Source: Parcubacteria group bacterium
GTDB lineage: Bacteria; Patescibacteriota; Patescibacteriia; UBA2169
Assembly: GCA_016181765.1 (NCBI GenBank)
Contig: JACOYR010000004.1
Coordinates: 201,853-265,852 of the forward strand
DNA length: 64,000 nucleotides
Reading direction: 5' to 3'
In this document: piece after piece, positions 5,344-32,335 of the stretch
Numbering within the stretch: the first letter of the stretch is position 1
Layout: each line of letters opens with the position of its first letter
Program-made: the position numbers and the translations under genes
The notes under the pieces: generated by a model
The model's database searches: none
Told to the model about the DNA's origin: nothing
Seen by the model: the letters and a program-made list of their open reading frames with translations, nothing else

Positions 5344-6132
5344 TCACAGCGGGCTCTGAATCGCGGCCAGAGCAGATCGCGCCACCTTGGTGTACACCTG
5401 CGTGGTGGTAAGCCGCGCGTGGCCCAAGAGCTCCTGGATGTACCGAATGTCGGTGCCGTTCTCCAGCAAGTGCGTGGCAAACGAATGGCGCAAGCTGTGG
5501 CAGCTTGCCTGTTTTTTGATGCCCGAATCTTTGAGCGCGTGGGCAAATATCTTTTGAGCCGACCGTTCAGTCAGCTTCCCGCCGCGGCTGCTTTCAAACA
5601 CAAAATCGCGTGCGTCTTTTTTTGCAACATACCGCGCAAGCGGCGCGCTGACTTTTTCAGAAAACAAGGTAACCCGGTCTTTCCCTCCTTTGCCGCCGCG
5701 AACCATCACGGCTTGGTTATCAAAATCCAAATCCCCCACCTTGAGATTCACGGCTTCGGAAACCCGCAACCCGGCCGAGTACATCATCCCGAGCAGGAGC
5801 TTGTGCTTGGCGCTTTTGATGGTTCCGAGCAATAACCGCACTTCTTGTTTGGAGAGCACCACCGGAAGTTTTTTTGATGATTTGGCGCGCGGAATGGAAA
5901 CAAAAAATCTCCGCTTGAGCACGGAGCCAAAGTAAAACTTAAGGGCGCTGTACACGGTATTGAGTGTTGACGCGGACTTTCCCGCGTCCGCGAGCGCTTC
6001 CAGATACTTTCGGACATCAGCCGTAGTGGTTGCCCGGGGGCCTTTGCCCGCCGAGCGCAAAAAGCCTTTGACGTTCGTTATATACGAACTTTGGGTCATT
6101 GGGCTAAACCCCCGCAGTTTCATCTCCTGCAC
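5344..6132 (-). CDS. tyrosine site-specific recombinase (XerC/XerD/IntI branch)
   Basis: The C-terminal catalytic motifs HSLRHSFATHLLENGTDIRYIQELLGH…TTQVYTKV are present. The segment KKLPVVLSKQEV…GLRVSEAVNLKVGDLDFDNQAVMVRGGKGGKDR resembles XerD and IntI. At 262 aa it lacks the IntI-specific insertion. It is divergent from the adjacent AT-rich island. Confidence 0.9.
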   Translation of the reverse strand: MQEMKLRGFSPMTQSSYITNVKGFLRSAGKGPRATTTADVRKYLEALADAGKSASTLNTVYSALKFYFGSVLKRRFFVSIPRAKSSKKLPVVLSKQEVRLLLGTIKSAKHKLLLGMMYSAGLRVSEAVNLKVGDLDFDNQAVMVRGGKGGKDRVTLFSEKVSAPLARYVAKKDARDFVFESSRGGKLTERSAQKIFAHALKDSGIKKQASCHSLRHSFATHLLENGTDIRYIQELLGHARLTTTQVYTKVARSALAAIQSPL

Positions 6133-6839: not shown

Positions 6840-6980
6840 TTTTTTTTATAAGTTTTTCTCAATCGGCTTTTTAAGAAAAGGAATAAAATAAGTTTTTTAA
6901 GAATTAGGATTTTAGGAGGGGTAAAGCCAAGGTGGTTTTCTCCGCTTCGCTCCGAAAACGATTCATTAATTAATTTATGT

Positions 6981-7439
6981 ATGTCAAAAATTAATGTAGT
7001 TTATACGCCCAAAATTGATGAAGAAGAAAAAAGAATATTTGAAGAAGTATTCGGAAAAAATAAAGTAGTATTTGGGGAATATAAAATTAAAGGAATAACA
7101 TGGGGCGCATTTGACATTCAAATAATAATAGACGCCTTGAATGACCCCACCATAACAGCCTTACTACACGGCACAGAATTTGCGCGTTTAATTGCCGTAT
7201 TGGTTAAAAAATTATTTAGCAGAAATACTAAAAAAATAATGGATAATAAATCAAGACCCAGATACACGACTTTGGTTATAAGAAAAGAAACTAGTTCTGT
7301 CGTAGTATCAAATGTTAATCCCGGCAACAAAATTCTTATTTCTAAAATCACGGCTAATTTCGAGGAAATTAAAAAACAGTTTGAGAGCGGTGATGATAAA
7401 TATACAGATGAAAAACTTAATAACTACTTGGATAATTAA
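6981..7439 (+). CDS. hypothetical protein (152 aa)
   Basis: It is an AT-rich ORF in an operon-like arrangement with the next two ORFs, which are spaced 5 and 4 bp apart. Confidence 0.5.
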   Translation: MSKINVVYTPKIDEEEKRIFEEVFGKNKVVFGEYKIKGITWGAFDIQIIIDALNDPTITALLHGTEFARLIAVLVKKLFSRNTKKIMDNKSRPRYTTLVIRKETSSVVVSNVNPGNKILISKITANFEEIKKQFESGDDKYTDEKLNNYLDN

Positions 7440-7444
7440 AATTT

Positions 7445-7651
7445 ATGAAGTCAAAAATAATTAAAAGCAAACGACTAAAGGATCGCATAGTGGAGATAAT
7501 TGAGTATAAAGATGATTTTGGGAAAATTGTAAATTATTCTGTTATTAACGTAAACCATGGCGAAGGGGTCATTGCGGGTGCCGGTAAATTAGAAGAAAAT
7601 AATTTTTCTAATGAAGAGGAAGCAATGATATTTTTTAATAATCAAAATTAA
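7445..7651 (+). CDS. hypothetical small protein (68 aa)
   Basis: Its spacing to the neighbouring genes suggests translational coupling. Confidence 0.4.
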   Translation: MKSKIIKSKRLKDRIVEIIEYKDDFGKIVNYSVINVNHGEGVIAGAGKLEENNFSNEEEAMIFFNNQN

Positions 7652-7655
7652 ATCT

Positions 7656-10136
7656 ATGCAAAAACAGTTCACAATCTATTTTATTCTTATTTTTATTCTA
7701 GGATTAACTTCGCTTAATTTTATTCAAAAAGTAAAAGCGTCAGATATTCCTGTGCCTATTGCCTACTGGAACCTTAACGACCAGGATGCTATAAATGCTG
7801 GCTTAGCATCCGATCAAATGGGTAACTATAATATGCAAATAGTTGACGGTACTTGGGATAGTAATGCATATGATGGCGGTTCTGTTGTTTTTAGTTGCAT
7901 GAAAACTGATTATAATGCTTGCGGGGCAAAAATCAGTAACGCCCTGCCAGAATTGAGCAAGTTTACTATATTATACAGAGTAAAATTAAAAGGTCCTATT
8001 AACAATACTCTTCGCCGCATCGTTGATTCAACGGGAGGATTTCATACATATTTTGACGGAAACTCAATCATGATTTCAGGAAACGGCATGAAAAATAGTA
8101 TTGATGAACCAATCAGTGTCAGCGAAAATTGGTATCATTTCGCAGTTGTTTACGACAATGCCGATGGTTATTATTTTTATAAAAATGGAAATTTAGCTGA
8201 ATACTCTACGACATCAGGCAATAAGATAAGCAGTGGGATCTGGTCCTTTGGGTATGGTGGTGGTGTCCAGGGCGATGCGAGTGCAAATATTATCCAACTT
8301 GATGAAATAAAAATATATGACACAGCACTTACCTCAGATCAAATTTTAGAAGAAAATAATTACAACGAAATAAGGTGTAAAGCAGATATTTACCAATATG
8401 GTGAGTGGGGCTCATGTCAGCCTGACGGCACAAAAACCAGAACTGCGACCAAAACGTTTAACTGTCCTTATACAAATAATGAACCAGAAAATGCAACAAC
8501 AAGTTGTAGCTATATTCCGCCTACTTGTACTTCTTGGCAATACTCAAACTGGTCGCAGTGTTCGAATAGTGGCCAACAAATAAGAACTATTATTTCATCT
8601 TCGCCAAGTGGCTGTGTTGATGGAAAGCCAATTTTAAATCAAAGTTGTAATTATACTCCTGTTTGTACAGTCAATAATTGGTCGTGTGATAATTGGTCGG
8701 GTTGTTCTTCTGGTGGAACTCAAACCAGATCCTGTAATAAAATTTCAAATTGCGAGGGTGGAATTTCCGCCCCGACCACCTCTCAATCCTGTACCTACAC
8801 TCCGACTTGTTCGGCAGACACTTGGCAGTGTGAAAATTGGGGGTCTTGCTCGCCACAAGGAATACAGGCAAGAAGCTGTACCAGAACCTATGACTGCCCG
8901 TCCGCTGAAACAGCGGCCCCGGCGACATCGCAATATTGCGTAGCCCCAAACCAGCCCAAACAACAATCACCGACCGAGGATTTGGGCATAGTAAACCAAA
9001 GCACAATTATAAAATCCACAGTTAAGCTTGTTTGTCCCGTAAATAGCACCACCGCAAGCCAAGGTTCGGGCACAGTTATCAATTCAACCGGCTTAATTTT
9101 GACCAATAAACACGTCATTGACGATACAGCCGGATGTCTAGTCGGGTTTATTGATGATTATGGCGATGAACCGTATTTTGGCGACAGGCAGATCGCTGAT
9201 ATTTACAAAATATCCAGCGATGCTGATGTTGCTGTTTTGAAATTGAGAAATCCAAGCAACAAGCCGCTAACCTCGATCAGTATTTCTCAAAGCAACAGCA
9301 ACAACATCAAATTGGGAGAAATACTTACTACCTACGGCTATCCGGCAAAATTCGGCACAAAAATAACCTACACCAGCGGCGATTTTAGCGGCGTGGACGG
9401 CAATTATCTGAAAACAACCGCTATTATTGAGCACGGCAATTCCGGCGGAGGCGCGTATTTAAAAAATGGCGCGTTTATCGGCATTCCAACCGCCGTAGTA
9501 AAAGGCAGTTTAAACTCCTTGGGCTATTTACTGTCAATCAATAAAGTAAACAGCTGGCTTAATAATTCTATAGCATATAACTACAATAATAATGACAATA
9601 ATTATTCGCGGGTTTCGGCTTTGTTAGAAGATATAAATTTGAACACTCTTGATTCTTTGGGCCTGTTCTTGCCTGGAGATGAGAAAAATCTTAAAACCCA
9701 AACAGAAAGCCAAAGCGTAATAGCCGAAGAAAAATTGTTGACCACCAAAATTGACAGCAGTTTATCAAGAAGAGTGAGTGGAAATATTCTGTTGCAGGTG
9801 GAAAAGAAAGGCGAAGGGTGGTATGTATATCCGGATAATAAAAAGAAGTATTATTTAGGCCGTCCGGCAGACGCTTTTAGCATTATGCGGAATTTGGGAT
9901 TGGGAATCAAACACAGCGAACTTAGCATTTATCTCAATTCAAAATTTCCCAGCAGATTATCCGGGAAAATATTATTGGATGTTGAGCAAAAAGGCGAAGC
10001 GTATTATATCAATCCAAACGACTTAAAGGGCTACTACCTTAGCAAGCCAGCAGACGCATTCAGAATTATGCGAGAACTCGGGCTGGGAATCACTAATGAT
10101 GACATAAGGAAAATTGACGTTGGTGAGACAGAATAA
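7656..10136 (+). CDS. secreted multidomain protein with a signal peptide, a LamG/ConA-like lectin domain, three thrombospondin-type-1-like Cys repeats, a trypsin-like serine protease domain and two C-terminal repeats of about 60 aa
   Basis: The N-terminus has the hydrophobic segment MQKQFTIYFILIFILGLTSLNF. The LamG-like region reads NWYHFAVVYD…LDEIKIYDTAL. The WxxWxxCSxxGxQxR repeats are CTSWQYSNWSQCSNSGQQIR, WSCDNWSGCSSGGTQTR and WQCENWGSCSPQGIQAR. The TNKHVI segment (His) and the GNSGGGAY segment (Ser) indicate a trypsin-like protease. Tandem repeats at the C-terminus read GKILLDVEQKGEAYYINP… and SGNILLQVEKKGEGWYVYP…. Confidence 0.8.
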   Translation: MQKQFTIYFILIFILGLTSLNFIQKVKASDIPVPIAYWNLNDQDAINAGLASDQMGNYNMQIVDGTWDSNAYDGGSVVFSCMKTDYNACGAKISNALPELSKFTILYRVKLKGPINNTLRRIVDSTGGFHTYFDGNSIMISGNGMKNSIDEPISVSENWYHFAVVYDNADGYYFYKNGNLAEYSTTSGNKISSGIWSFGYGGGVQGDASANIIQLDEIKIYDTALTSDQILEENNYNEIRCKADIYQYGEWGSCQPDGTKTRTATKTFNCPYTNNEPENATTSCSYIPPTCTSWQYSNWSQCSNSGQQIRTIISSSPSGCVDGKPILNQSCNYTPVCTVNNWSCDNWSGCSSGGTQTRSCNKISNCEGGISAPTTSQSCTYTPTCSADTWQCENWGSCSPQGIQARSCTRTYDCPSAETAAPATSQYCVAPNQPKQQSPTEDLGIVNQSTIIKSTVKLVCPVNSTTASQGSGTVINSTGLILTNKHVIDDTAGCLVGFIDDYGDEPYFGDRQIADIYKISSDADVAVLKLRNPSNKPLTSISISQSNSNNIKLGEILTTYGYPAKFGTKITYTSGDFSGVDGNYLKTTAIIEHGNSGGGAYLKNGAFIGIPTAVVKGSLNSLGYLLSINKVNSWLNNSIAYNYNNNDNNYSRVSALLEDINLNTLDSLGLFLPGDEKNLKTQTESQSVIAEEKLLTTKIDSSLSRRVSGNILLQVEKKGEGWYVYPDNKKKYYLGRPADAFSIMRNLGLGIKHSELSIYLNSKFPSRLSGKILLDVEQKGEAYYINPNDLKGYYLSKPADAFRIMRELGLGITNDDIRKIDVGETE

Positions 10137-10259
10137 AAATATCCAATTATTTGTAGACATCTTTCTTGTCTTATTCTAATATATATGCTATTATTAGAAT
10201 AAGCTAATTCTTTATTATAACCGTTAGAATAACGAAACTCCTTATTCTAACCGCAAAAT

Positions 10260-11360
10260 ATGGCTAACCAACCCTTTAATCCGCCCGCCTTACCGCCAAA
10301 AATCAACTATGAGCCACTGATTGACCATATTATCAGGGCCCACCGCGCCCTGGCCGGGCTTGATTCCCTGCTTGGCGCTTTACCCAACCCGAACCTATTG
10401 GGCCGAACCATGCAAACCAAAGAAGCGGTGGAAAGTTCAAAAATAGAGGGTACCCAAGCCACGATCAACGAAGTCTTGGCGTATGAAGCGGAACCGGGGA
10501 AAAAGGAAGATGCCAAGAAAAAACAAGACATAAACGAGATTATAAATTACCGCCAGGCTTTGGACTTGGGAGTAAAAAGTTTAACCACACTGCCGTTGTC
10601 CGAAAACTTGATTAAAAAACTGCATGCCACCCTGCTTAAATCCGGCCGGGGCGCCAATAAAGCGCCGGGTGAATTTAGAAAAATACAGGTGTACATCGGC
10701 AAGCCCGGAGCCACTATTTCCGAAGCGTCATATATTCCCCCGGCTGCTAACGGCATAATCTCCTTATTCAGCAATTTGGAAAAATACCTTAATAGCGGCG
10801 ATGAAAAAGACAAATTAGTGCAAATCGCGGTGGCCCATTATCAATTTGAAGCTATCCACCCTTTTTTGGACGGCAACGGCCGGGTCGGCCGGCTGATTAT
10901 CTCTCTGTTTTTGTACGAGAAAAAATTATTATCGCACCCGTTTCTGTATTTGAGCGAATTTTTTGAGGAGCACCGCCGGGATTATTACGAATTATTGAGC
11001 AATGTGAGCGCCAAGCAGGATTGGGAAAGCTGGATAAAATTTTTCTTGAACGCCCTGGCCACCCAAGCCCAAAAAGCCGAAGCCATTGGCAAGGAAATTC
11101 TGAAACTCCACAGCGGCTATAAAGAAAAAATTATAGCCATCAACTCCATGTATGCCAATAACTTATTGGACGCGATTTTTATTCGGCCGATTTTTACCAC
11201 TGCCAGCCTGCGGCCGCACGTTAAAATGAAAAATACCCAGACATTTTTCAGCTTAGTGGCAAAATTCGCCGCCGCCGGAATTTTAGAAGAAGCCAACCCC
11301 AAAAAAAGACGCAATAAAGTTTATGTCTTCACGGAATTAATGAAGCTTTTGAATAAATAA
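10260..11360 (+). CDS. fic: Fic family AMPylase (Fido) with an N-terminal inhibitory motif
   Basis: The canonical HPFLDGNGRVGR motif is present. The upstream SSKIEG matches the (S/T)xxxE(G/N) auto-inhibition motif of class II Fic proteins. Confidence 0.9.
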   Translation: MANQPFNPPALPPKINYEPLIDHIIRAHRALAGLDSLLGALPNPNLLGRTMQTKEAVESSKIEGTQATINEVLAYEAEPGKKEDAKKKQDINEIINYRQALDLGVKSLTTLPLSENLIKKLHATLLKSGRGANKAPGEFRKIQVYIGKPGATISEASYIPPAANGIISLFSNLEKYLNSGDEKDKLVQIAVAHYQFEAIHPFLDGNGRVGRLIISLFLYEKKLLSHPFLYLSEFFEEHRRDYYELLSNVSAKQDWESWIKFFLNALATQAQKAEAIGKEILKLHSGYKEKIIAINSMYANNLLDAIFIRPIFTTASLRPHVKMKNTQTFFSLVAKFAAAGILEEANPKKRRNKVYVFTELMKLLNK

Positions 11361-11447
11361 AGAGTTTTGGGCAAAGGGCATTCACCCCTAACCCCTCTGC
11401 CCCTTGCCCAAAACAAAAAATAAATTTAAGATTTAAGAAAAAAAAGC
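11361..11447 (+). repeat. repeat B, copy 1: terminator-like hairpin ttttgggcaaagggca…tgccccttgcccaaaa plus an AT-rich tail, directly after fic
   Basis: It is about 90% identical over its first 53 bp to 12658-12745. Confidence 0.7.
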
Positions 11448-11487
11448 CTACCAAAAGACATCAAAAAAAATATTTTTAGAACAGCGT

Positions 11488-11605
11488 ATAACACTGAATA
11501 TGCGGTTCAAAAACATTGCCCCTTAGATATGATCGGTCGCAATGTTTTTTCACCCATATTTGCCTCCGCTACGCTTTGGCAAACATCGCATATTCAGGAA
11601 CGTTG
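11488..11605 (+). repeat. palindromic element A, copy 2
   Basis: The 5' 68 bp are near-identical to copy 1, and it ends with tcgcatattcaggaacgttg. Confidence 0.7.
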
Positions 11606-11943
11606 TAACCGCTCAACAAGACCGTAGAGACCAAAACGATTATTTCCATCAGCAAATAAACATATTCGTAAAAAATTTGAGTGACGGCAATGAGGTGCAA
11701 ATCCTGTCCACCCAAGGAGATGTAAGAGAAACGGGATGGGTTAGTGCAAGCTTTAGTCCTGACAGCAAATACGGCGTATACAATCTAAACAAGCAGCTCT
11801 GGATTCTTGACGCTGAAACTGGAGAAAAAACACAGCTTACAACCGAGTTGAGAGAGTACCGCGAACCTCGTTGGTCTACGGACGGAAATAAAATTATCTA
11901 TACTACGGGTGAAGAAGTAAGATTAATTAAACTGACATTTTGA
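11542..11943 (+). pseudogene. fragment of a TolB-like PD40 beta-propeller protein (probable gene remnant)
   Basis: The translation …SDGNEVQILSTQGDVRE…FSPDSKYGVYN…REPRWSTDGNKIIYTT contains PD40-type repeats. There are only about 100 aa of the domain, and the ORF's 5' end runs into repeat element A, so no credible start exists. Confidence 0.35.
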
Positions 11944-12032
11944 TTCTATCAAATACATATATTTCCCTTGAACCTGCCCATGAGGCGGGCAGACACCCCA
12001 TTAGTTCCCCTCCGCCCTTTACCTATCAATTC

Positions 12033-12563
12033 ATGAAACCAACACCAAACAACTTCGCCTACATTGACGCCGCCAACTTGCACCGGGGCGTTATTCAGCT
12101 TGGCTGGCAATTGGATTACAAGAAATTCCGGATCTGGCTGAAAGAGAAATACGGCGTTAGCCAGGCCTATCTTTTCATCGGTCTGGTGCCCAAGCACAAA
12201 GATTTATACACCAGCTTGCAGGAAGCCGGCTTTACCCTTGTCTATAAAGAAATAACCTATGACGGCGAGGGCAAGGTCAAAGGAAATTGCGACGCTGATT
12301 TGGTGCTTAAAACCACCCGCGACGCTTACGAAAACTCGTTTGCGCAAGCGATTTTGGTTTCCAGCGACGGCGATTACGCCGGCTTGGTTAAATTTTTGCT
12401 GGAAAGAAACAAGTTCATGGGCATTATTTCCCCGTCAGTTTCGGCCAAATGTTCGGTGCTATTGAAACGGACCGGCGCGCGCATAGCGTACATCAATGAC
12501 CAGAGGTCCATATTGGAAATTACAAAAGGCGGCCAAAAAGAAAAAGCCCCCGGCCGGGACTAA
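12033..12563 (+). CDS. NYN-domain (LabA-like) putative ribonuclease
   Basis: Conserved acidic residues of the NYN fold are seen in FAYIDAANL…GNCDADLV…VSSDGDYAGLV. The ORF opens at 11940, but the Met at 12033 is the likely start. Confidence 0.8.
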   Translation: MKPTPNNFAYIDAANLHRGVIQLGWQLDYKKFRIWLKEKYGVSQAYLFIGLVPKHKDLYTSLQEAGFTLVYKEITYDGEGKVKGNCDADLVLKTTRDAYENSFAQAILVSSDGDYAGLVKFLLERNKFMGIISPSVSAKCSVLLKRTGARIAYINDQRSILEITKGGQKEKAPGRD

Positions 12564-12657
12564 CCCCGGCAAGGGTCTTTTTCGTAGTGATAAATACAGT
12601 ATAGCAGTTTGAGGCAAAAAGTCAATATAACTTATAAACAGCCCAAAAACAGACAAA

Positions 12658-12745
12658 GAGTTTTGGGCAAAGGGCATTCACCCCTAACCCCTCTGCCCTT
12701 TGCCTAAAACGGAAAAAACTTATTTTAAAATTTAAGAAAAAGCCG
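12658..12745 (+). repeat. repeat B, copy 2 (after the NYN gene)
   Basis: It carries the same hairpin as copy 1 with one compensating mismatch, and the same aaatttaagaaaaagcc tail. Confidence 0.7.
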
Positions 12746-12785
12746 ATTGAAGAAAAATTCAAAGAAAAAAAATTACATCGCGCAA

Positions 12786-12910
12786 CAGCGCATATGAGGT
12801 TCGGGAAAAAGCGATAATTTGATATAATCAAGGTGTCGCCTTTCCCCTCTCCCAAACCCGCCAAGGAGGCGGGCTTCTCATATGCGCGAACGTTCTGCGA
12901 AATAAAATAA
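12786..12910 (+). repeat. palindromic element A, copy 3 (diverged): outer IR gcgcatatgag/ctcatatgcgc, 3' tail gaacgttctgcgaaataaaataa
   Basis: Its architecture and conserved 3' tail match copies 1 and 2. Confidence 0.55.
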
Positions 12911-12926
12911 TTTTATTCAATTTTTT

Positions 12927-13183
12927 ATGAGTATAGAAAGACCTGAAAACATACAAGAACAGCTTCGGGAAATTTTTTTAAAGGAAGAATATACCTGTCG
13001 CCGGAACAATTAAAAATCATTGATTTCTTGGACCAGATGGGGCGCATTGTCGTTAAAGACGCGGAAGAGATATTGTCCTGCCCGCGGCGCACGGCGCAAT
13101 TGCACTTGCAAAAATTAAAAAAGATTAAAATGATTAAAGCCACCGGCAAAGGCAAATCCACCGCCTATATCGCCAATAAATAA
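12927..13183 (+). pseudogene. winged-HTH regulator (…LSPEQLKIIDFLDQMGRIVVKDAEEILSCPRRTAQLHLQKLKKIKMIKATGKGKSTAYIANK) split by a frameshift in a T7 tract
   Basis: The ATG at 12927 gives MSIERPENIQEQLREIFLKEEYT and then a stop. Frame +2 (read relative to that ATG) continues from 12947 as an HTH with the typical GKG(K/R)ST.Y ending. The two frames join at aatttttttaaagg. Confidence 0.4.
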
Positions 13184-17651: not shown

Positions 17652-18035
17652 CTAGCAGGCGCACAAGTTTCGGAAAGCGGCTTTGAGCGCGTGCGCGAGC
17701 GGCGCCACGGAAGGGGGCAGCTTATTCAGTGGCACATCCTGATGCTTCAACAACCACTGAATCCTCTCGCAGGTCTCTGCGTCAAAACTGCCGCAAGCGG
17801 CAAGGTAATCGTACGCATGCATCGCAGGCGATGCATGCTGCCACATGCGCAAACACGCGGTCAGAAGTTCTACTCTCTGTCCGTGCGTAAGCTCCCCGTT
17901 GAGACTACTGCGTCCCGGCATTCTACGAATCTCCCCGAATTCGTATGGTGAACGACTGGCCGCATGAGTATTGGGCGGCCAGGGCTTCGTACTGCGTACT
18001 CTGCTTGGCGTGCGTTCTCCGTTTTGAAAGGACAA
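17652..18035 (-). CDS. hypothetical protein (start uncertain)
   Basis: It is a 127-aa ORF between miaA and gatB. The 17602-17630 hairpin and U-run downstream of it on the minus strand lend some support. Its upstream edge abuts the gatB terminator, and an alternative + strand ORF exists. Confidence 0.3.
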   Translation of the reverse strand: MSFQNGERTPSRVRSTKPWPPNTHAASRSPYEFGEIRRMPGRSSLNGELTHGQRVELLTACLRMWQHASPAMHAYDYLAACGSFDAETCERIQWLLKHQDVPLNKLPPSVAPLAHALKAAFRNLCAC

Positions 18036-18061
18036 AAAACGGCTTCCCGTCAGGGAAGCCG
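18034..18061 (-). terminator. rho-independent terminator of gatB (cggcttccctgacgggaagccg followed by T6 on the minus strand)
   Basis: The perfect 9-bp stem and the U-run were read directly. Confidence 0.7.
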
Positions 18062-18230: not shown

Positions 18231-19775
18231 TCACTGCCGCTTGAGCGCTTTTTTGAGCAGTTTTGCCGCGAGAACCGGATCAGCCTTGCCGCGGGCCTCC
18301 TTCATCACCTGGCCCACAAAATACTGGAACACCGCCTTTTTGCCGGAGCCATACTCTGCCGCCTGCAAGGGGTTATTTTTGACGACCCCTGCGACAATGC
18401 CGGGAAGCGCACCCGAATCTCCCATGGCGCCCAAATCCTTTGACTCCAAAATATCCGTCGGGTCCCCGCCGGTTTTAACCATCTCCGAAAGTATGACCTG
18501 CGCGTTCGCTGCATTGACGCGCGACTGGTGCACCAGGGTGATGAGTTCAGCCATATTCTCGGGCGTGATCTTGATGTCCGCGATTGATGAACCGGCCGTG
18601 CGCAAAACGCCGAGCAGTTTGGACAAGAGCCAGCTTGAAACTAATCGCGCGAGTTTTTTCTTGTCCTGTTCCCATGCTTCTTCGCTGCTTTGGTCCGGGT
18701 CAAGCAAGGTAAGCCACACCTTGAGCTCGGAAATCACCTCCTCGCCGAAGCGTGCGAGCGCGCGATCAGACGCAAACGTCTTGGCATCAGCCGCGCTGAA
18801 TCCATACTCTTGGACAAACCGTTGGCGCAAATCACGCGGCAATTCAGGAATGCCTTTTTTGATGCGGGCAACCCAAGACTCATCAAAATCCAGCTCCGGA
18901 ATGTCCGGGTCAGGAAAGTACCGGTAATCAGCAGACCCCTCCTTGCCGCGCTGGACCACGGTTTTGGCGCTGTCCTCGTCCCAGCCACGCGTGCCCTGCT
19001 CGCCCGGCGCGTTGCCGGTCTCCTCCCACACTGCGGTTTGGCGCTTGATCTCGTAGACAAGAGCGCGCTCAACGGCCTTGAATGAATTCAAATTTTTGAT
19101 CTCAGTCTTGGGATACAGAACTTCCCCCTCCTTTACCAAGGAGGGGGTCGGGGGGTGGTTCTTGGAGTGCATAGGCCGCAAAGAAACATTGGCATCGCAC
19201 CGCAGATGCCCCTTTTCCATGTCCGCGTCCGACACCCCGAGGTAGCGCATAATCAAGCGGAGTTCGCGCAAAAACGCGCCCGCTTCTTCCGGAGACCGGA
19301 TGTCTGCTTCGGTCACGATTTCCATCAGGGGCGTGCCCCCGCGGTTGTAGTCCACGAATGAATCGCCTTTTTCGTTATGCAAAAGTTTTGCCGCGTCCTC
19401 TTCTAAATGCAGGCGGTGGATGCGGATCGCGCGCTCCTCCCCGCCTATGACGATGCTCATGGAGCCTTTCACGCCGATGGGCTCGTCAAACTGGGAAATC
19501 TGGTAGCCTTTGGGCAGGTCCGGGTAAAAGTAGTGCTTCCTGTCAAACTTGGAATGGGGGGGAATCTCGCACCCCAAAGCAAGCGCGGCCAACACGGCCC
19601 ACTCAATGGCCTGCTTGTTGGGAACCGGCAAGGTTCCCGGGTGCCCCAGGCACACCGGGCAGATAGTGGTGTTCGGGGCCTCGTTTTCGCCCTCATTTGA
19701 GCAACCGCAAAACATCTTGCTCTTGGTTTTGAGCTGCACGTGGATTTCCAGGCCAATGACCGGTTCAAGCTTCAT
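18231..19775 (-). CDS. gatB: Asp/Glu-tRNA amidotransferase subunit B
   Basis: MKLEPVIGLEIHVQLKTKSKMFCGCS… and the C-terminal GatB/YqeY domain are present. One GC palindromic mini-element (19124-19159) is inserted in frame and encodes …KNHPPTPSLVKEGE…. Confidence 0.95.
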   Translation of the reverse strand: MKLEPVIGLEIHVQLKTKSKMFCGCSNEGENEAPNTTICPVCLGHPGTLPVPNKQAIEWAVLAALALGCEIPPHSKFDRKHYFYPDLPKGYQISQFDEPIGVKGSMSIVIGGEERAIRIHRLHLEEDAAKLLHNEKGDSFVDYNRGGTPLMEIVTEADIRSPEEAGAFLRELRLIMRYLGVSDADMEKGHLRCDANVSLRPMHSKNHPPTPSLVKEGEVLYPKTEIKNLNSFKAVERALVYEIKRQTAVWEETGNAPGEQGTRGWDEDSAKTVVQRGKEGSADYRYFPDPDIPELDFDESWVARIKKGIPELPRDLRQRFVQEYGFSAADAKTFASDRALARFGEEVISELKVWLTLLDPDQSSEEAWEQDKKKLARLVSSWLLSKLLGVLRTAGSSIADIKITPENMAELITLVHQSRVNAANAQVILSEMVKTGGDPTDILESKDLGAMGDSGALPGIVAGVVKNNPLQAAEYGSGKKAVFQYFVGQVMKEARGKADPVLAAKLLKKALKRQ

Positions 19776-20263
19776 TTATCTAACTCCAAAAACGTTACGT
19801 GGTACTCATCCGTATCAAGTTCTTTCCTGCTTATCACTCTACCAAATTCTCCGTATTCTGGGAAGAATGTATCAGCTTCAAAATTGCCGTCTATGACGGT
19901 CAAATACAGCCGGTTGATGAGGTGCATGGCGAGCTTGAAAATCTCTGCTCCGCCGATGATAAAAATTTCTTGTTGATCATGTTTGCTCGCTTCTTCAATC
20001 GCGTCTTCAACGGATGATACGACAAGAGCGCCCTCGGCTTTGTAGTCCGGATTTCGGGTGATGACAATGTTCAAACGCCCGGGCAAAGGCTTGTGGATGC
20101 CGAGCGACTCAAAGGTCTTGCGCCCCATGATCACCGGGTGCCCCAGGGTGGTCTGTTTGAAGTGCTTCAAATCCTCCGGGACGTGCCAGGGGATGGTGCC
20201 GTTGGCCCCGAGCTCGCGGTTTTTGCCGATGGCCGCGATTGCGCTGATGACTGGCTTTTGCAT
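19772..20263 (-). CDS. folA: dihydrofolate reductase
   Basis: MQKPVISAIAAIGKNRELGANGTIPWHVPEDLKHFKQTTLGHPVIMGRKTF… matches DHFR. The ORF opens at 20281, and the Met at 20263 is the likely start. Confidence 0.9.
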   Translation of the reverse strand: MQKPVISAIAAIGKNRELGANGTIPWHVPEDLKHFKQTTLGHPVIMGRKTFESLGIHKPLPGRLNIVITRNPDYKAEGALVVSSVEDAIEEASKHDQQEIFIIGGAEIFKLAMHLINRLYLTVIDGNFEADTFFPEYGEFGRVISRKELDTDEYHVTFLELDK

Positions 20264-20270
20264 GCCTGTA

Positions 20271-21200
20271 TTATACCGCAATCGGCGCTTTTATGGCAGG
20301 GTGCGGGTCATAGCCAACCAGCTCAAAATCATCAAACTCAAAATCAAACACGTCTTTGACTTCTGGATTCAGCTTCACCTGCGGCAATAAGCGCGGCTCG
20401 CGGGAAAGCTGTTCCCCTGCCTGCTCAAGATGGTTCTTGTAGATGTGCGCGTCCCCGAACGTGTGCACAAAATCACCCAGCTTGAGGCCCGTGGTCTGGG
20501 CCATCATCATGGTCAAAAGCGCGTAGGACGCAATGTTGAACGGCACCCCAAGAAACATATCCGCAGTGCGCTGGTACATCTGGCACGAGAGTATTCCGCG
20601 GTTGACGTAAAACTGGAACATGGTGTGGCACGCGGGCGGGGAATTGGTTTTGCTTTTGACGAGCTCCTGGATATCAGCCACGTTCCACGCATTTACGATA
20701 ATGCGCCGCGAATCAGGGTTGTTGCGGATCATCTCCTGTGCCTGCGCAACTTGGTTAATGGTTGAGCCGTCCTTTGCTTCCCAACGGACCCACTGCTTGC
20801 CGTACACCGGCCCCAGATCACCCCACTCCTCGGCGAACGCCGCATCCTCTTTGATGCGCTCCACGAACTCTTTCATTTTCTCGTGCCACCCCTCCGTGTA
20901 CATGGGAAACTGTTCAGTGAGCCCCTGGGCTTTCAACCACGCCTGGAATGGCCACTCGTTCCAGATATTCACGCTATTGTCCACGAGGTACTTGATGTTG
21001 GTATCGCCCTTCAAAAACCACAAGAGCTCGTGCAGAATCAGGCGAATCGGCACTTTCTTTGTGGTCACCAGGGGGAATCCTTTGGACAGGTCAAACCGAA
21101 TCTGCCGGCCAAACACGCTGCGCGTGCCAATGCCGGTGCGGTCGCTCTTATCAATCCCGTTTTCCTTGATGTCGCGAAGAAGTTCTAAATACTGCTTCAT
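20271..21200 (-). CDS. thyA: thymidylate synthase
   Basis: The motifs [12 protein letters not shown]…[11 protein letters not shown]… are present. Confidence 0.95.
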
Positions 21201-21206
21201 ACGCCA

Positions 21207-22352
21207 TTATTGTAGCACGCGGCGCACCTGTTCCCAAATGAGCCCATGCACCTCCGGTATGGAGAGCAGGCGGCCGTCCGGCGCGCACTCAATGAGCTTG
21301 AAACCCGGAAACAGGGCGCACATTTCGCGGTAGGTCTGGGACGCAGCCTCAAGGTGGGAAACATCATCCTCGTGCACGTCGCGCGTGGCCCCGGACAAAT
21401 ACGCGCGCATCGCCTTTTGGTCAATGTTGAGCTGGCCGATCTGGGCCGGAACGTGCAGGACCACCGTGAGGTCGGGCCGCGGGATGCCGAACACCCCATA
21501 CTCGTATTGGTCCAACCACTCAAAGTACTGCTGGCGCGCCTCGCGCGTTCGGAACTTCGCGCCCTGGTGGCCCATGTTCGCGGACACGTACCGGTTCGCG
21601 ACCACCACCTTCCCCTGCTCAAGTTGTTCGGCCAGCCCGAAGCTCGCATCATACCGGTCCAGCATAAAAAAGAATGACGCAACATACGGGCTGACCTCGC
21701 CTCCGGTCCCGTACGCGCCGTTCAAATAGTTTTCAACCAAGCCCGCGGACTTTTTTCCGTACTGCGGAAAATCAGCTTTAACGGCAGCGTGCCCTTCCGC
21801 GCGCAAGCGCTCAATAAGCAGATCAGTCTGCGTCCCCTTGCCGCTCCCATCTATGCCATCTATGACAATAAATTTTCCACTTTCCTGCGGCGAGGCCGCT
21901 GATTGCGGAATTGACGAAACAGGCGCCCGATTGTCGGTTGACCCAAACCCTCCCCTGCCCGCATTGCCCGTGGCCAAAACCTCCTCCCACTCCGCCCGGC
22001 CGACCGGCAGAAACACGGCCTGGGCAACGCGGTCCCCGCGCTTGATGATGACGGGCGAATCGGTAGGGTTGTAGAACTGCAAAAGAATCTCGTCATTGTC
22101 CCCGCAAAAATCGCGGTCAATCACTCCCTCGGTGATAAGCAGTCCGGTCTTTTTCAAAGTGCTGGAGCGGTCCGTGACCCAGAGCATGTACCCCGCAGGA
22201 ATCTCCACCGCCACATTGGATGGCGCGCGTCCCATGCCGCGGGCGGGAATCACGGTATCCGTCCGCACCACAAAATCAAACGCAACCGCGCCCGAGGTCT
22301 CGTACTGCGGGAGCGGGAGCGATGGATCAATCCGTTTGATGCGCACCCGCAT
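21207..22352 (-). CDS. dut-tmk: bifunctional dUTPase-thymidylate kinase fusion protein
   Basis: The N-terminal about 150 aa carry dUTPase motifs (GVIDRDFCGD, RVAQ, RGGFGSTD). A Ser/Pro linker follows, then Tmk with the P-loop KFIVIDGIDGSGKGTQ and the DRY-type motif FFMLDRYD. It is a single 381-aa ORF. Confidence 0.85.
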   Translation of the reverse strand: MRVRIKRIDPSLPLPQYETSGAVAFDFVVRTDTVIPARGMGRAPSNVAVEIPAGYMLWVTDRSSTLKKTGLLITEGVIDRDFCGDNDEILLQFYNPTDSPVIIKRGDRVAQAVFLPVGRAEWEEVLATGNAGRGGFGSTDNRAPVSSIPQSAASPQESGKFIVIDGIDGSGKGTQTDLLIERLRAEGHAAVKADFPQYGKKSAGLVENYLNGAYGTGGEVSPYVASFFFMLDRYDASFGLAEQLEQGKVVVANRYVSANMGHQGAKFRTREARQQYFEWLDQYEYGVFGIPRPDLTVVLHVPAQIGQLNIDQKAMRAYLSGATRDVHEDDVSHLEAASQTYREMCALFPGFKLIECAPDGRLLSIPEVHGLIWEQVRRVLQ

Positions 22353-22354
22353 AC

Positions 22355-23473
22355 CTACTGCCAGGTCTGCTTAAAGTGCTTGGAGAGCTTGGGACCTGTG
22401 CCGGTGTAGGATGACCCGATTCCGGAACTGTACAAAACCTCCGGGACTTCCAGCATGTGCTCGTACACCATCTTGCAGATAATCTGCCCCCGCGTTAAGC
22501 GGAACGGCACGTTGTGCGCGCGCACCTCAAGCACCGCAGGCGTGCCCGCGCCCGCGCCGGCCTCGCCGAACCCCCAGCCCGGATCAAAGAATCCCGCATA
22601 GTGGGAACGCATCTCCCCGCTTGCGGTGTCGTAGGACGCCATTTCCCCGGCAAACGCCGGGGGGAACGTGATGCGCTCAATGCTCGCGAGCAAATAGAAG
22701 TTGTTGGGCACCAGAATCAGCTCCCCGTTCTTGGGGCGCAGGATGGGCTCCCAAAAATCACTGGGCTCATACTCGCCCACCAAGCCCAGGTCAATGGCCT
22801 TGGTGGTATCGTGCTTGGCGCGGAATCCGATCACCTCCCGGGTCTCAAGGTCAACGGTCAGCATCAAGCCCCCGCCATTGACGAGCAGCATGTTCTGCAT
22901 CACGGGCGTGCCGCTCTGGTTAAACAAAATCCCGTGCTTCGCGTGCGCGAGCCGCAAATCGCTCTCCCGCGCGAGGTAGGGCCCCGCGGTGCGGAACCGC
23001 ACCTGGTTTGCGGCAAGCCCGGGGTGGATCTTCACCACAAAATCCAAAGGGATCACCTCTAAATAGAGCTGGCCTTTGTACCCGGGGGGAATGTAGTCAA
23101 ACCGCGGCGTGTGGTCGCACAATAATCTGACAAACAAGCCCACGCGCCCGATGGAGCTCTTGGGGTTCGCATACGCGTACATGCCCGGCGCCAAATCCAC
23201 GTACTCGTTCAACGGGATGATGTAGGATGAGTTCGGCTCAAGAATGGTGCCGGGCTTGAGCTCAAAATCATAAAGCGTGCGCGCCTTCAAAATCTCCCAG
23301 ATGGTCTCATTGGGCTTGGGCAGAAAGCTGGAGCTGGTGCGGTACACGCGGTCAGAGAGCGTCAGGTCCAAGGACGCGGGCTGGATCTGTTTTTCCGCAA
23401 TCGCCCCTTTGGAAAAAATCATGGGGTTTGCCCCAAAAATGAGGTCTTTGATTTTTTGGTACGGCAGTGTCAT
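22355..23473 (-). CDS. dcd: 2'-deoxycytidine 5'-triphosphate deaminase, long (about 370 aa) DCD-family form
   Basis: The motif …KSSIGRVGLFV… and the overall length match the DCD family. It overlaps the dut-tmk start and is the first gene of the dTTP operon. Confidence 0.75.
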   Translation of the reverse strand: MTLPYQKIKDLIFGANPMIFSKGAIAEKQIQPASLDLTLSDRVYRTSSSFLPKPNETIWEILKARTLYDFELKPGTILEPNSSYIIPLNEYVDLAPGMYAYANPKSSIGRVGLFVRLLCDHTPRFDYIPPGYKGQLYLEVIPLDFVVKIHPGLAANQVRFRTAGPYLARESDLRLAHAKHGILFNQSGTPVMQNMLLVNGGGLMLTVDLETREVIGFRAKHDTTKAIDLGLVGEYEPSDFWEPILRPKNGELILVPNNFYLLASIERITFPPAFAGEMASYDTASGEMRSHYAGFFDPGWGFGEAGAGAGTPAVLEVRAHNVPFRLTRGQIICKMVYEHMLEVPEVLYSSGIGSSYTGTGPKLSKHFKQTWQ

Positions 23474-23474
23474 A

Positions 23475-23495
23475 CAAAAAAGGGGGCTCTCCCCC
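23475..23495 (-). terminator. hairpin gggggagagccccc plus a U6 run that ends 2 nt before the dcd start codon (rplA terminator or dcd leader attenuator)
   Basis: The + strand reads catacaaaaaagggggctctccccctcc. Confidence 0.5.
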
Positions 23496-23614
23496 TCCCT
23501 GGCCCTTTAGTGTACCAAAATACATTGTGATAAGACACTAGACAAAACCGCACGGCTGTTGGCTAATCCGTGATGTTCTCCACCACTTCTCCCCAGGAAC
23601 CTAAAAACCAGTGC

Positions 23615-24289
23615 TTACATCTGAACCGGAATGCCTGGACCCATAGTCGTGGCAAGGGTCACACTCTTGATGAACGTGCCTTTGGCTGCTGCGGGTTTTG
23701 CGGCTTTCACCGCGTCATACGCGGTCTGGATGTTCTCTTTGAGCTTGCCTGCGTCAAACGAAGCACGCCCCACCAGGATGTGGATGTTGCCCGTGTTGTC
23801 GTTCTTAAAGGAAATTTTTCCGCGGGAGAGCTCGTCAATGGCTTTTGCAATATCCGGGGAAACAGTGCCGTTCTTGGGAGAAGGCATCAAGCCGCGCGGC
23901 CCCAGGATTTTCGCAACCGGAGCAAGCTTTGGCATGAATGCGGGCTCCGCAACCAAGACGTCAAAATCCATCTTCCCGACCTGGATCTCTTTGATGAGCT
24001 CTTCCCCGCCCGCAATGTGCGCACCTGCGGCTTTGGCTGCGGCAGGGTTTGCGGTGATAGCAGCGATCTTCTGCTTCTTGCCCGTGCCGTGCGGCAGGCT
24101 CGCGGTTCCGCGCACCTGCTCGTCCGACTGCTTCACGTCTATGCCCGTGCGCACGTGGAGCTCCACGCCCGCGTCAAACTTAGTGTTGCCCGCATCTTCA
24201 AGCCGCGCCAACGCCTCGTCCAGGCTGTATGTTTTGCCAGCCTCAACTTTTTCTTTGAGCGCCCGGTAGCGCTTTGAATGTTTTGCCAT
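23615..24289 (-). CDS. rplA: 50S ribosomal protein L1
   Basis: MAKHSKRYRALKEKV…GPRGLMPSPKNGTV… matches L1. Confidence 0.95.
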   Translation of the reverse strand: MAKHSKRYRALKEKVEAGKTYSLDEALARLEDAGNTKFDAGVELHVRTGIDVKQSDEQVRGTASLPHGTGKKQKIAAITANPAAAKAAGAHIAGGEELIKEIQVGKMDFDVLVAEPAFMPKLAPVAKILGPRGLMPSPKNGTVSPDIAKAIDELSRGKISFKNDNTGNIHILVGRASFDAGKLKENIQTAYDAVKAAKPAAAKGTFIKSVTLATTMGPGIPVQM

Positions 24290-25637: not shown

Positions 25638-27647
<2,010 letters not shown>

Positions 27648-28085
27648 CTAGGCGTGCTTGTCTAAAAATGTGCTGTAAGAATCGGCAAACTGCTGAAAAA
27701 CATCAGGGGCTTTCTGCAAATACGCATACACTTTTTTAAAATCAACATCTGCATACTCATGAATAAGCAAATTTCTGAATTTTGTCATATCCTTATTCTC
27801 ATTGATTATTTGTTGCGGAACAACTCCGACTTCTCCCAAAAGGCGCACAATATCAGAGTAATCTTCGGCTGATTTTTGAAAAACAGTACTCAAAATATGA
27901 TTTCCCGCATCAGTTATAATCGCAATCCCAATCGCTAAATCAAACATAGCCGCCCCGTTCAACTTTTTGTCAGCGATAAAATCCTCTTGAGTTTGCGCCT
28001 CTTCGGCATATTCCCGCAAATCACTGATGAGATCTTGCAATTTCATCAATTTTTTTTGAATTGATTTTCTATCTAGTGGGGACAT
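27648..28085 (-). CDS. hepT: HepT-like (DUF86) toxin
   Basis: The Rx4HxY motif RNLLIHEY is present. The gene is AT-rich and overlaps the 3' end of the MNT gene. The start is uncertain (ORF to 28196; Met at 28085 or 28046). Confidence 0.75.
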   Translation of the reverse strand: MSPLDRKSIQKKLMKLQDLISDLREYAEEAQTQEDFIADKKLNGAAMFDLAIGIAIITDAGNHILSTVFQKSAEDYSDIVRLLGEVGVVPQQIINENKDMTKFRNLLIHEYADVDFKKVYAYLQKAPDVFQQFADSYSTFLDKHA

Positions 28086-28536
28086 ATATTTCCGGTTTGC
28101 CAAATGTTTTATGAACCAAATGTCGGCGCATGATTTGATACTGTGTTTCGCGGATGTGGTTTGTGTCTTCGTATTCTCTCCTGATTTTTTGCTCAATCAT
28201 AAATCGCTGTTCCTCATCAGTAACATACAGCGGCTTTGCGTAAAACACGGCGCGATGTTTCAACAGCGGGCTCTTGCATGTTTCCAAATTAACCACATCA
28301 ACGCGGTCAATCTTAAACACACTCCCAATATCGGACATCATGCTCAACTCCAAATCAAACTGCTTGTCTTTTGGTACTTTCTTGGAAAAAACCACGGCAA
28401 TGTCCACATCCGACAAAGGACCGACATTACCCCTGGCGCGCGAGCCAAACAAATACGCCAGCGCAACCTTGCGCTTTTCAAAAATCGGGGCCAGTTTTTG
28501 CTTGATTTCTTCAATGGTTTTGGTCATATAATCCAA
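28069..28536 (-). CDS. mnt: MNT (minimal nucleotidyltransferase) antitoxin
   Basis: The GSxxxG…DxD motif GSRARGNVGPLSDVDIAV is present. It lies upstream of, and overlaps, hepT. Confidence 0.8.
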   Translation of the reverse strand: MDYMTKTIEEIKQKLAPIFEKRKVALAYLFGSRARGNVGPLSDVDIAVVFSKKVPKDKQFDLELSMMSDIGSVFKIDRVDVVNLETCKSPLLKHRAVFYAKPLYVTDEEQRFMIEQKIRREYEDTNHIRETQYQIMRRHLVHKTFGKPEIYVPTR

Positions 28537-31246: not shown

Positions 31247-32335
31247 TTATTTCACCGCATAATTTTTCGCGGCAAACACGTACTGCTCTATGAAGATAGC
31301 CTTAAATGGAATAATTGAATTAACCTCGTAAAACACGAGGGTCGCTTCGCGGTAGTCTTTCTCCTTTACGCTCCGATAGGATAGAGGCGCGCAGTTGTGC
31401 GCCAGCAATATCGCGTTTGCCATAATGCGCGCGGTGCGCTTATTGCCGTCATTAAACGGCTGAATGTAGCTGATGCCGAGCAAGGCCAAGAGGGCTTTGG
31501 CATAGGGGGTTTTCGCCCTTGCCATGGCGGCCGCCAGCGCCTCTACCGCCTCTCTAATCTGATGCGCGTTGTCCAGCGGCCGATACTTGGAACCGGTTAC
31601 GCCGACCGGTTTTTGGCGCAATCCCGCGCCCACGCTTAAATCTTTCACTACCATGCCATGCAGTTGTTCAAGATTAGGGCGCGTCAGAACGCGAAACTCT
31701 TTCTTATGTTCGTACACAAACTCAAACGCGTCCTTGTGATTGAGAATCATGCGGGCTTCTTTTTTATCATGCCCAAGAGCTTCCTTGCGCTCTAAAATAA
31801 GCTTCTCCGTGTCAAGAAGCGTATACGTATTCCCCTCAATCTTTGATGATTTCCAGGACAGTTCTATGATGAGCCGTTCTAATTCTTTCTTTTGAATGGC
31901 CCGCGGTAACCGCGCCGTCCGCGCATGATATTCGTCGGTTGCCTTTTCAAGAGCGGCTTGTTCGGCCGGAGTGAAGATATCGGAGAGGAACGACGGCAGC
32001 AGATCAAAATTAAAACGCGCGAGCCCAAAGCGCTCGTCCGGTTCCGTGGCGCAGTAACGGTTCGCGTCCACCTCGCTCCAGATGCGCCCTAAAACGCTGA
32101 TGCCGTACGCGCGCGACCGGCCGCGGCCAAAAGCGGCCAAAAGCCCCGCCGCGGCCATGCGGGATAGTTCTCGCTTAATGGTTACCAGCGAGGTTTCTTG
32201 GCCTTCTCTGGCCAGGCGGCTGTGAACCTCTGAAGAACTTATGAAATCTTGGCGTAGAAATAAATCCAGTATTTTTTGCTGCTTTGAACTGATTATGGTC
32301 ATAATCGTATCATTTATACTAATTAATCGTATCAA
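31247..32335 (-). CDS. HTH-Fic family protein with a degenerate Fic motif (QPFNDGNKRTAR instead of HPFx[D/E]GNGR)
   Basis: An N-terminal winged HTH is followed by a Fic fold. The catalytic His is replaced by Gln and the second Gly by Lys. Confidence 0.75.
   Translation of the reverse strand: MIRLISINDTIMTIISSKQQKILDLFLRQDFISSSEVHSRLAREGQETSLVTIKRELSRMAAAGLLAAFGRGRSRAYGISVLGRIWSEVDANRYCATEPDERFGLARFNFDLLPSFLSDIFTPAEQAALEKATDEYHARTARLPRAIQKKELERLIIELSWKSSKIEGNTYTLLDTEKLILERKEALGHDKKEARMILNHKDAFEFVYEHKKEFRVLTRPNLEQLHGMVVKDLSVGAGLRQKPVGVTGSKYRPLDNAHQIREAVEALAAAMARAKTPYAKALLALLGISYIQPFNDGNKRTARIMANAILLAHNCAPLSYRSVKEKDYREATLVFYEVNSIIPFKAIFIEQYVFAAKNYAVK

Follow-up and report, generated by a model that had tools for sequence, protein, structure and literature searches.

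A putative thymidylate operon with a dUTPase-thymidylate kinase fusion gene in a Patescibacteria bacterium

Proteins that combine two activities of the thymidylate (dTMP) pathway are known from several lineages, and include the dihydrofolate reductase-thymidylate synthase (DHFR-TS) of protozoa and plants and the Dcd-Dut proteins of archaea and mycobacteria. In these proteins, consecutive or cofactor-linked steps are joined. The subject of this study is a different combination, a fusion of dUTPase (Dut) and a thymidylate-kinase-family domain (Tmk), whose two predicted steps flank that of thymidylate synthase (ThyA). It is encoded in a 64,000-nucleotide (nt) stretch of DNA (the window; positions 201,853 to 265,852 of contig JACOYR010000004.1, assembly GCA_016181765.1) from a small uncultured bacterium of the Patescibacteria (candidate phyla radiation, CPR) type. 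Fusions of thymidylate kinase (TMK) and dUTPase have been described in baculoviruses (PeluSNPV pelu112, ErelGV erel005 and OpMNPV op031), where they are proposed to balance dUTP against dTTP and to speed up DNA synthesis, and where their expression accelerates viral DNA replication (PMC4895240). Compared at the level of domain families, the viral proteins and the protein of the window both unite, in one polypeptide, a domain of the thymidylate kinase family and a trimeric dUTPase that has the full set of five motifs. However, the order is reversed in the viral proteins, with Tmk at the N-terminus and the C-terminal arm of the dUTPase free, whereas the dUTPase of the window is N-terminal. The viral fusions are also of viral or eukaryote-like origin, contain a kinase of another subfamily and lie outside any dcd-thyA-folA operon. 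No paper describing a bacterial Dut-Tmk fusion was found in a literature search that excluded most subscription papers.

The span from dcd to folA encodes four minus-strand genes with five predicted activities (Table 1), as read from the sequence and the list of open reading frames (ORFs), and not five genes as counted in the preliminary description of the locus; gatB brings the probable unit to five genes. All five ORFs are uninterrupted, and each is full length compared with its orthologues. The tight packing that had been noted was confirmed, as the dcd TAG is followed after 2 nt, the dut-tmk TAA after 6 nt and the thyA TAA after 7 nt by the next ATG. The folA stop and the gatB start overlap in ATGA, by which gatB appears to be translationally coupled to folA. 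The unit would run on into gatB, as first suggested, and a strong terminator-like hairpin with a T6 run comes after this gene, where transcription of the unit probably ends. For folA, the most likely start is the ATG at 20263, as in relatives, rather than the TTG at 20281, and the orthologues in two loci of relatives (L002 and L003; loci of relatives are given L-numbers and protein clusters P-numbers) are of 163 amino acids (aa). The expected route from dCTP through dUTP, dUMP and dTMP to dTDP, together with the recycling of dihydrofolate to tetrahydrofolate, is covered by family assignment (Pfam, NCBIfam and PDB). ThyA scored above the NCBIfam cut-offs (TIGR03284, 452.4 versus 108.35 bits; NF002496, 443.5 versus 325), and FolA was under its NCBIfam cut-off, though its assignment at the Pfam level is unambiguous. 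No known RNA family was detected by an Rfam scan of the whole window, including the region upstream of dcd, at gathering thresholds.

The best overall explanation, to which we give a probability of about 0.72, is that dcd, dut-tmk, thyA, folA and gatB form a de novo thymidylate operon, in which a Dut-Tmk fusion arose by stop-codon loss and its kinase, marked by an N-R-Y (NRY) motif, acts on dTMP. Transcription would probably start from a promoter-like element ~35-75 nt 5' of dcd and end after gatB. Dcd would form dUTP by deaminating dCTP, the dUTPase at the N-terminus of the fusion would convert dUTP to dUMP and pyrophosphate, ThyA would convert dUMP to dTMP while FolA regenerates tetrahydrofolate, and the C-terminal kinase domain would phosphorylate dTMP to dTDP. 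The likely benefit of the fusion would be a fixed 1:1 expression and the co-localisation of dUTP removal with commitment to dTTP, giving a low dUTP/dTTP ratio. It had been proposed that the protein channels dUMP towards dTMP phosphorylation. This does not follow from the fusion alone, as the dUMP produced by Dut is not a substrate of Tmk and ThyA intervenes; the fused steps are the first and third of the series dUTP to dUMP to dTMP to dTDP, and direct channelling is thus not implied.

The fusion was confirmed as a genuine single ORF of 381 aa, both domains of which were modelled with confidence. AlphaFold2, run with an alignment of 55 sequences, gave a model with a mean predicted local distance difference test score (pLDDT) of 88.9 and a predicted template modelling score of 0.62. 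This structure prediction, proposed in the preliminary description in view of the differing oligomeric states of the two enzymes, was run as a monomer and gave two confident domains with a disordered linker, where pLDDT was below 50 at residues 145-154 and the 10-residue blocks over residues 131-160 averaged 56, 46 and 65. In the fused relatives, 10-28 aa separate the parts that match Dut and Tmk. No in-frame start codon was seen within the linker by reading of the sequence, and consequently the kinase can be made solely as part of the fusion. In Foldseek searches against the PDB, the matches were thymidylate kinases and trimeric dUTPases only, and no chain covered both halves (query-normalised TM-score at most 0.46). 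As dUTPases are trimeric and thymidylate kinases are dimeric, the two domains on a flexible linker could form a hexamer or a larger assembly.

A search of 5.8 billion proteins yielded 2023 relatives, and architectures were classed by motif patterns in the best 120 clusters. Dut-Tmk, the order of the window, was the rarer of the two fused arrangements (24 clusters, versus 59 with Tmk-Dut); 34 clusters were kinase-only and 3 were unclassifiable. Full-length alignment was obtained for 21 of the 24 Dut-Tmk clusters, at 51-70% identity, and the relatives bear the names Patescibacteria, Parcubacteria, Falkowbacteria and Uhrbacteria. The closest full-length relatives were from bacterium CG10_46_32 (70%), isolate ARS1386 (64%) and a 1.03-Mb contig (58%; L001). 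As for the profile of Dut-Tmk fusions that had been called for, the architecture was recurrent among these clusters, but its novelty is lower than supposed, as both orders are common in Patescibacteria and a Tmk-Dut fusion is known from baculoviruses. The order dcd/dut-tmk/thyA/folA/gatB was the same in L001, in L002, L003 and L011 (all CG10_46_32) and in L006, which are independent assemblies, and the entire upstream gyrB-secE-nusG-rplK-rplA block is common to CG10_46_32 and the window.

This recurrence bears on the suspicion that an error of sequencing or assembly produced the fusion by removing the stop between two genes. Two other genes in the window, metG and rmuC, are split by apparent frameshifts, and in other lineages dut and tmk are separate genes that frequently share a frame, so that one base change could merge them. 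However, the nearest relatives (L001, L002, L003 and L006), like the other members of the 24 Dut-Tmk clusters, are also fused, cluster P0001 alone is present on 11 contigs, indels disrupt ORFs and do not delete stop codons, and the genes of the operon are not truncated. An artefact is thus very improbable, and this explanation was rejected on the recurrence of the fused state in independent assemblies.

To find the unfused state, a single genome of each species was scanned, and the loci were then mapped with tblastn and their ORFs checked. The dut and tmk genes were adjacent and separate in L012, L021, L034 and L052, labelled Doudnabacteria, and in L007, L008, L013 and L047, with other labels. 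At these loci dut terminates in RGGFGSTG followed by the stop codon, and a short spacer separates it from tmk, which frequently keeps the same frame. Because these relatives keep the two genes adjacent and divided by a stop and a short spacer, the fusion appears to have arisen in the clade of the window through loss of the dut stop codon, which would have turned the spacer into a flexible linker of ~16-30 residues. The unfused pairs and the Tmk-Dut fusions have the same NRY-type kinase as the window (50-57% identity) and a similar neighbourhood (rplA ... thyA folA ... gatB miaA), and are annotated in databases as 'dTMP kinase', 'dUTP diphosphatase' or 'hypothetical protein'. In contrast to the window, the Tmk-Dut proteins are in reversed order and have a dUTPase of another type, with 26-32% identity between the Dut domains and a different motif V (RG.GR.GSSG). 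This difference in Dut lineage indicates that the two orders are independent events.

At most of 80 species-level loci, the NRY-type kinase was found in the neighbourhood rplA ... thyA, folA, dut, dcd or dCMP deaminase ... tmk ... gatB, miaA, and in the majority of the Patescibacteria loci inspected, gatB came after the tmk cluster. When 1.84 billion representatives were searched exhaustively with phmmer, 620 matched at E <= 1e-30, many of them of 520-780 aa with the kinase N-terminal. Pfam scans of examples identified the kinase joined to a ThyX-like domain (P0125, P0133 and P0178; proteins of 620-780 aa, in many clusters), to thymidine kinase (TK; P0122), and, with an AAA_18-type kinase, in an arrangement of AAA_18-type kinase, Tmk and Dut (P0074). 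Two further loci, L049 (1946-3055) and L058 (5980-7089), encode the kinase with a degenerate dUTPase-like C-terminal domain without motifs III and V, and at L046 (6001-7000) a dUTPase is fused to an unrelated ~190-aa domain and followed by a separate tmk. A phage-borne fusion was also considered and was rejected, as a viral scan (IMG/VR) gave just two weak partial kinase matches. The fusion of the window is a lineage-specific variant, and recurrent fusions of thymidylate enzymes are present but undescribed in public databases.

The dUTPase half of the fusion scored 70.1 bits against PF00692 (cut-off 22; residues 13-139). Its jelly-roll fold was modelled at a pLDDT of ~85-98 across the domain, with target-normalised Foldseek TM-scores (TMt) of 0.79-0.85 to the trimeric dUTPases of H. 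pylori, B. subtilis and M. tuberculosis. The claim that all five dUTPase motifs are kept was upheld by alignment to solved dUTPases (I, GAVAFDF; II, DRSS; III, GVIDRDFCGD; IV, RVAQ; V, RGGFGST), with motif V in a compressed form. Motif III carries Phe at a position that is Tyr in most dUTPases and in most members of the clade. Conservation of the five motifs within the Dut-Tmk clade, including the catalytic Asp of motif III, was at least 60%, and mostly at least 90%.

The kinase half scored 62.7 bits against PF02223 (cut-off 27; residues 164-308), and its best PDB match was the thymidylate kinase (TMPK) of M. tuberculosis (1G3U; E = 1.7e-18), with a TMt of 0.82-0.86 in Foldseek and a sequence identity of ~25%. 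The P-loop reads G166-I-D-G-S-G-K172-G-T, of which G166, G171 and K172 are invariant across the family. Residues D9, K13, F36/P37/Y39, F70 and R74 of the M. tuberculosis enzyme correspond to D168, K172, F195/P196/Y198 (FPQYG), F229 and R233, while D94-R95-Y96, N100 and Y103 correspond to N253-R254-Y255, N259 and H262. In the LID region, R153/R156/R162 correspond to K313/R316/R324 and D163/E166 to D325/E328, with E328 invariant in the family. The equivalents of D9, K13, F36/P37/Y39, F70, R74, R95, N100, D163 and E166 were conserved across 121 family members. In the published structure of the M. tuberculosis enzyme, F70 stacks, R74 and N100 contact thymine and D9 reaches the 3'-OH, and the aligned residues presumably have these roles. 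The two enzymes differ at D94 (Asn in the window), Y103 (His) and R14 (Gly), and in the fusion to dUTPase. In the column of the DRY Asp, 108 of the 121 family sequences have Asn, 10 have Asp and 3 have Glu, and the signature (S/A)NRY(V)(T/S)ANMGHQG.K is strongly conserved. The N-R-Y form is thus a family-wide signature and no lesion, and by its sequence the kinase belongs to a distinct Mtb-TMPK-like subfamily that bears it. The P-loop described previously was confirmed, but the DRY motif had been misplaced; the LDRYD string (residues 232-234) is the equivalent of the M. tuberculosis D73-R74 site, and the true site reads N-R-Y. As for the catalytic residues whose absence would have spoken against a kinase, alignment placed the P-loop, the clamp Arg and the residues contacting thymidine monophosphate, with Asn for the DRY Asp.

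A number of observations weigh against the proposed reading. For the dUTPase half, the scores were under the NCBIfam cut-offs (TIGR00576, 76.6 versus 102.55; a second equivalog/superfamily model, 70 versus 103). Motif V is compressed (G-R-G-G-F-G-S-T), with two residues fewer between Arg and Phe than the canonical R-G-x-G-G-F-G-S-T has, and it would have to function while tethered to a C-terminal domain. In L004 (1886-4601), L009 (927-3514) and L010, the gene directly after dcd encodes the kinase alone (75-77% identity to the C-terminal half of the window's protein) and is followed by thyA-folA, with no Dut domain in the operon. These relatives raise the question of whether the tandem-domain Dcd may give dUMP directly. 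It might be, then, that the dUTPase half is weak or regulatory, as a moonlighting domain or a trimerisation scaffold, and that dUMP is supplied by a bifunctional dCTP deaminase/dUTPase Dcd; the degenerate Dut-like domains of L049 and L058 also point in this direction. We consider this improbable, given the conservation of the five motifs in the Dut-Tmk clade, and nothing in the analysis indicates that the long Dcd is bifunctional. Moreover, the unfused orthologues have the same form of motif V, and its compression is therefore a feature of the clade and no consequence of the fusion.

For the kinase half, the scores were under the cut-offs of the NCBIfam dTMP kinase equivalogs (PRK07933, 106.9 versus 193; TIGR00041, 54.7 versus 83.25). 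The D-R-(Y/H/F) pattern of thymidylate kinases is not present, as the clamp Arg and the Tyr are kept and the Asp is Asn, and the position of Y103 in M. tuberculosis is His. In P0260 a canonical DRY Tmk domain precedes an NRY kinase, and some Falkowbacteria have two NRY paralogues side by side, which may hint that the NRY kinase is not simply redundant with Tmk. Weak PPK2 or dNK Pfam matches occur in some family members. PPK3, a Tmk-like protein of Crenarchaeota, is a polyphosphate kinase encoded in an operon with ppx, CHAD and SixA, with paired catalytic and regulatory Tmk-like subunits, so that proteins annotated as Tmk have been shown experimentally to be polyphosphate kinases (PMC12995831). 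The C-terminal half could accordingly be a diverged paralogue within the Tmk superfamily, with another deoxynucleoside mono- or diphosphate as substrate (e.g. dTDP to dTTP) or a PPK3-like activity, and not the dTMP kinase of the cell. This is unlikely in our estimation. In both sequence and fold, this half best matches bona fide TMPKs, it keeps the equivalents of F70, R74 and N100 and of the clamp Arg R95, and the neighbours are dcd, dut, thyA, folA and gatB, not ppx, CHAD, SixA or pst. A profile search identified no second Dut- or Tmk-like ORF in the 64-kb window, which is a fraction of the genome, and the paired Tmk-like genes of PPK3 have no counterpart there. The ThyX-like and TK fusion partners make dTMP, which argues for dTMP as the substrate expected of the NRY kinase.

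The same fusions might also be taken as signs of a selected thymidylate metabolon with an NRY kinase of altered mechanism. Selection may repeatedly favour a physical link between thymidylate enzymes in ultra-small cells of the CPR/DPANN type, and the NRY kinase has independently gained dUTPase (on either side), ThyX-like domains, TK and extra kinases as fusion partners. A hexameric or larger scaffold of the fusion could also dock the dimeric ThyA, and could serve in proofreading by hydrolysing dUTP that arises from promiscuous phosphorylation of dUMP by the kinase. The conserved change of the DRY Asp to Asn would then point to a metal or phosphoryl-transfer mechanism that has changed in the subfamily. 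We regard this more elaborate proposal as distinctly unlikely, and retain the thymidylate operon with a predicted dTMP kinase.

The operon also appears to be a hotspot of module replacement among close relatives, because of the Dut-less loci described above, a kinase exchange and a switch of thyA type. L014 (1931-2989) and L027 (2761-3816) have the Dcd (91% and 83% identity) and the Dut (83% and 72%) nearest to those of the window, and in both the same Dut is joined to a different Tmk-superfamily domain of ~200 aa with the P-loop GINNLGKST. Both key arginines of this domain are replaced (LNKY and AEDYW versus LDRY and ANRY), and the module may be inactive or have been repurposed. The thyA gene of the window is of a 309-aa type shared with L001 and L027 (70-71% identity), whereas that of CG10_46_32 (L002 8735-9529) is of a 264-aa type with 57% identity, although the flanking genes are 76-83% identical. 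This suggests an allele or module replacement within the operon.

The long-form Dcd had been presented as a special feature of the locus. It is indeed a 372-aa member of the DCD family, but not a new one, as it belongs to an established tandem-domain dCTP deaminase family (PF06559/PF22569, PRK07559) with a solved structure, the structural-genomics entry 2R9Q of Agrobacterium tumefaciens. The Dcd of the window passed the PRK07559 equivalog (374.4 bits versus a cut-off of 283), had both DCD_N and DCD_C, matched 2R9Q over residues 19-368 (E = 1e-87) and was 74-91% identical to its relatives; no difference from the family was detected at the sequence level. On direct reading of the sequence, its N-terminal half would have KSSIGR (Ser/Arg) and LEV (Glu) at the positions expected of a dCTP deaminase. 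We know of no published enzymology for the family, and none was found in the literature searched.

Table 1. Coordinates of the features discussed, in positions of the window.
Feature	Position	Strand	Remarks
rplA	24289..23615	-	Upstream neighbour; 141-nt spacer to dcd
Promoter-/operator-like element TTTTGTCTAGTG-N18-TGGTACACTAA	23507..23547	-	Inverted repeat TAGTGT...ACACTA inside; conserved in relatives
Leader hairpin GGGGG-AGAG-CCCCC + T6	23476..23500	-	Hairpin + T6 at 23495-23476; read from sequence
dcd, tandem-domain dCTP deaminase, 372 aa	22355..23473	-	Pfam DCD_N + DCD + DCD_C
dut-tmk fusion ORF, 381 aa	21207..22352	-	Pfam dUTPase residues 13-139 + Thymidylate_kin residues 164-308
dUTPase domain, fusion residues 1-141	21930..22352	-	PF00692, five motifs, model
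Linker, fusion residues 142-157, NRAPVSSIPQSAASPQ	21882..21929	-	Low pLDDT; stop + spacer here in unfused relatives
Thymidylate-kinase-family domain, fusion residues 158-381	21207..21881	-	PF02223; N253-R254-Y255 at nt 21596-21588
thyA, long-type thymidylate synthase, 309 aa	20271..21200	-	PF00303, 376 bits
folA, dihydrofolate reductase, 163 aa	19772..20263	-	PF00186 (DHFR_1), 184 bits; ATG at 20263 is the probable start
gatB, final gene of the unit	18231..19775	-	Pfam GatB_N + GatB_Yqey
Intrinsic-terminator-like hairpin after gatB	18030..18061	-	9-bp stem, 7 GC pairs, + T6; terminator scan

Upstream of dcd, the promoter-like element was present at identical spacing in L002 (CG10_46_32; 6412-6452) and in L004 (1787-1827), and within the window an exact match to both of its halves occurred at this single position. 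It lies ~10-50 nt 5' of a hairpin in the dcd leader. A sigma-70 promoter scan made no call in the rplA-dcd spacer, where the conserved element was under the threshold. The inverted repeat was also considered as an NrdR box, and this was dropped, as neither half belongs to a full 16-bp palindrome. Farther upstream, a second sequence, GGGGAGAAG.(A/G)GTGGAGAA, is also common to the window and L002. The preliminary description had the operon start right after an rplA terminator hairpin. The hairpin is real, but it lies in the dcd leader, 120 nt past the rplA stop and 3' of the conserved element, and ends 3 nt short of the dcd ATG, where it overlaps a Shine-Dalgarno-like GGGAGG run. It was not conserved at L002 or L004 and was absent from the terminator-scan calls, and L002 has a distinct, clear rplA terminator farther upstream. 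The minimum free energy of the leader RNA fold was -17.2 kcal/mol, indistinguishable from that of shuffled sequences (z = -0.43). The hairpin could be a partial terminator of rplKA read-through, an attenuator or a stem that masks the Shine-Dalgarno sequence; with a fold energy no better than that of shuffles, no terminator or attenuator function is claimed. Since the hairpin is not conserved and its energy is like that of shuffles, we infer that the conserved element is the promoter or operator of the operon and that the hairpin is part of the 5' leader. The element may alternatively be a small leader RNA.

Elsewhere in the window, the region 5344-13000 is an island of low GC content (0.36-0.42 versus ~0.55 in the rest of the window), which is probably an integrated mobile element. 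It starts with a tyrosine recombinase/integrase gene (6132..5344) and includes genes for a trypsin-like/LamG protein (7656-10136), a Fic-domain protein (10260-11360) and an NYN-domain protein (11940-12563); a second Fic-domain protein is encoded at 31247-32335. The gyrB gene (25638-27644) encodes 668 aa, whereas in the CG10_46_32 relatives (L002 280-3597) its product includes an intein (Intein_splicing) and reaches 1105 aa; in the window, gyrB adjoins a gene for a HepT-like, toxin-type ribonuclease (27648-28196). A DUF5671 gene is located between rplK and rplA in the CG10_46_32 relatives and is absent in the window. In metG (55120-56461), the catalytic and anticodon-binding domains are in separate ORFs and the reading of the KMSKS region continues in another frame, and in rmuC (52016-53015) the frame switches near 52640. 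These apparent frameshifts, either assembly indel errors or pseudogenes, mean that the assembly is not taken as error-free.

The pathway and the enzyme families described here are standard, and current understanding of them is not overturned. If active as predicted, the Dut-Tmk protein would illustrate, in a compact form found in nature, how bacteria with reduced genomes fix the stoichiometry between dUTP sanitation and dTTP synthesis. Comparison of the unfused, Dut-Tmk, Tmk-Dut, Tmk-ThyX-like and Tmk-TK forms offers a clean way to ask why pathway enzymes fuse. The N-R-Y kinases represent an uncharacterised branch of the thymidylate kinase superfamily, the enzymology of which would be worthwhile because Tmk-like proteins can have unexpected activities.

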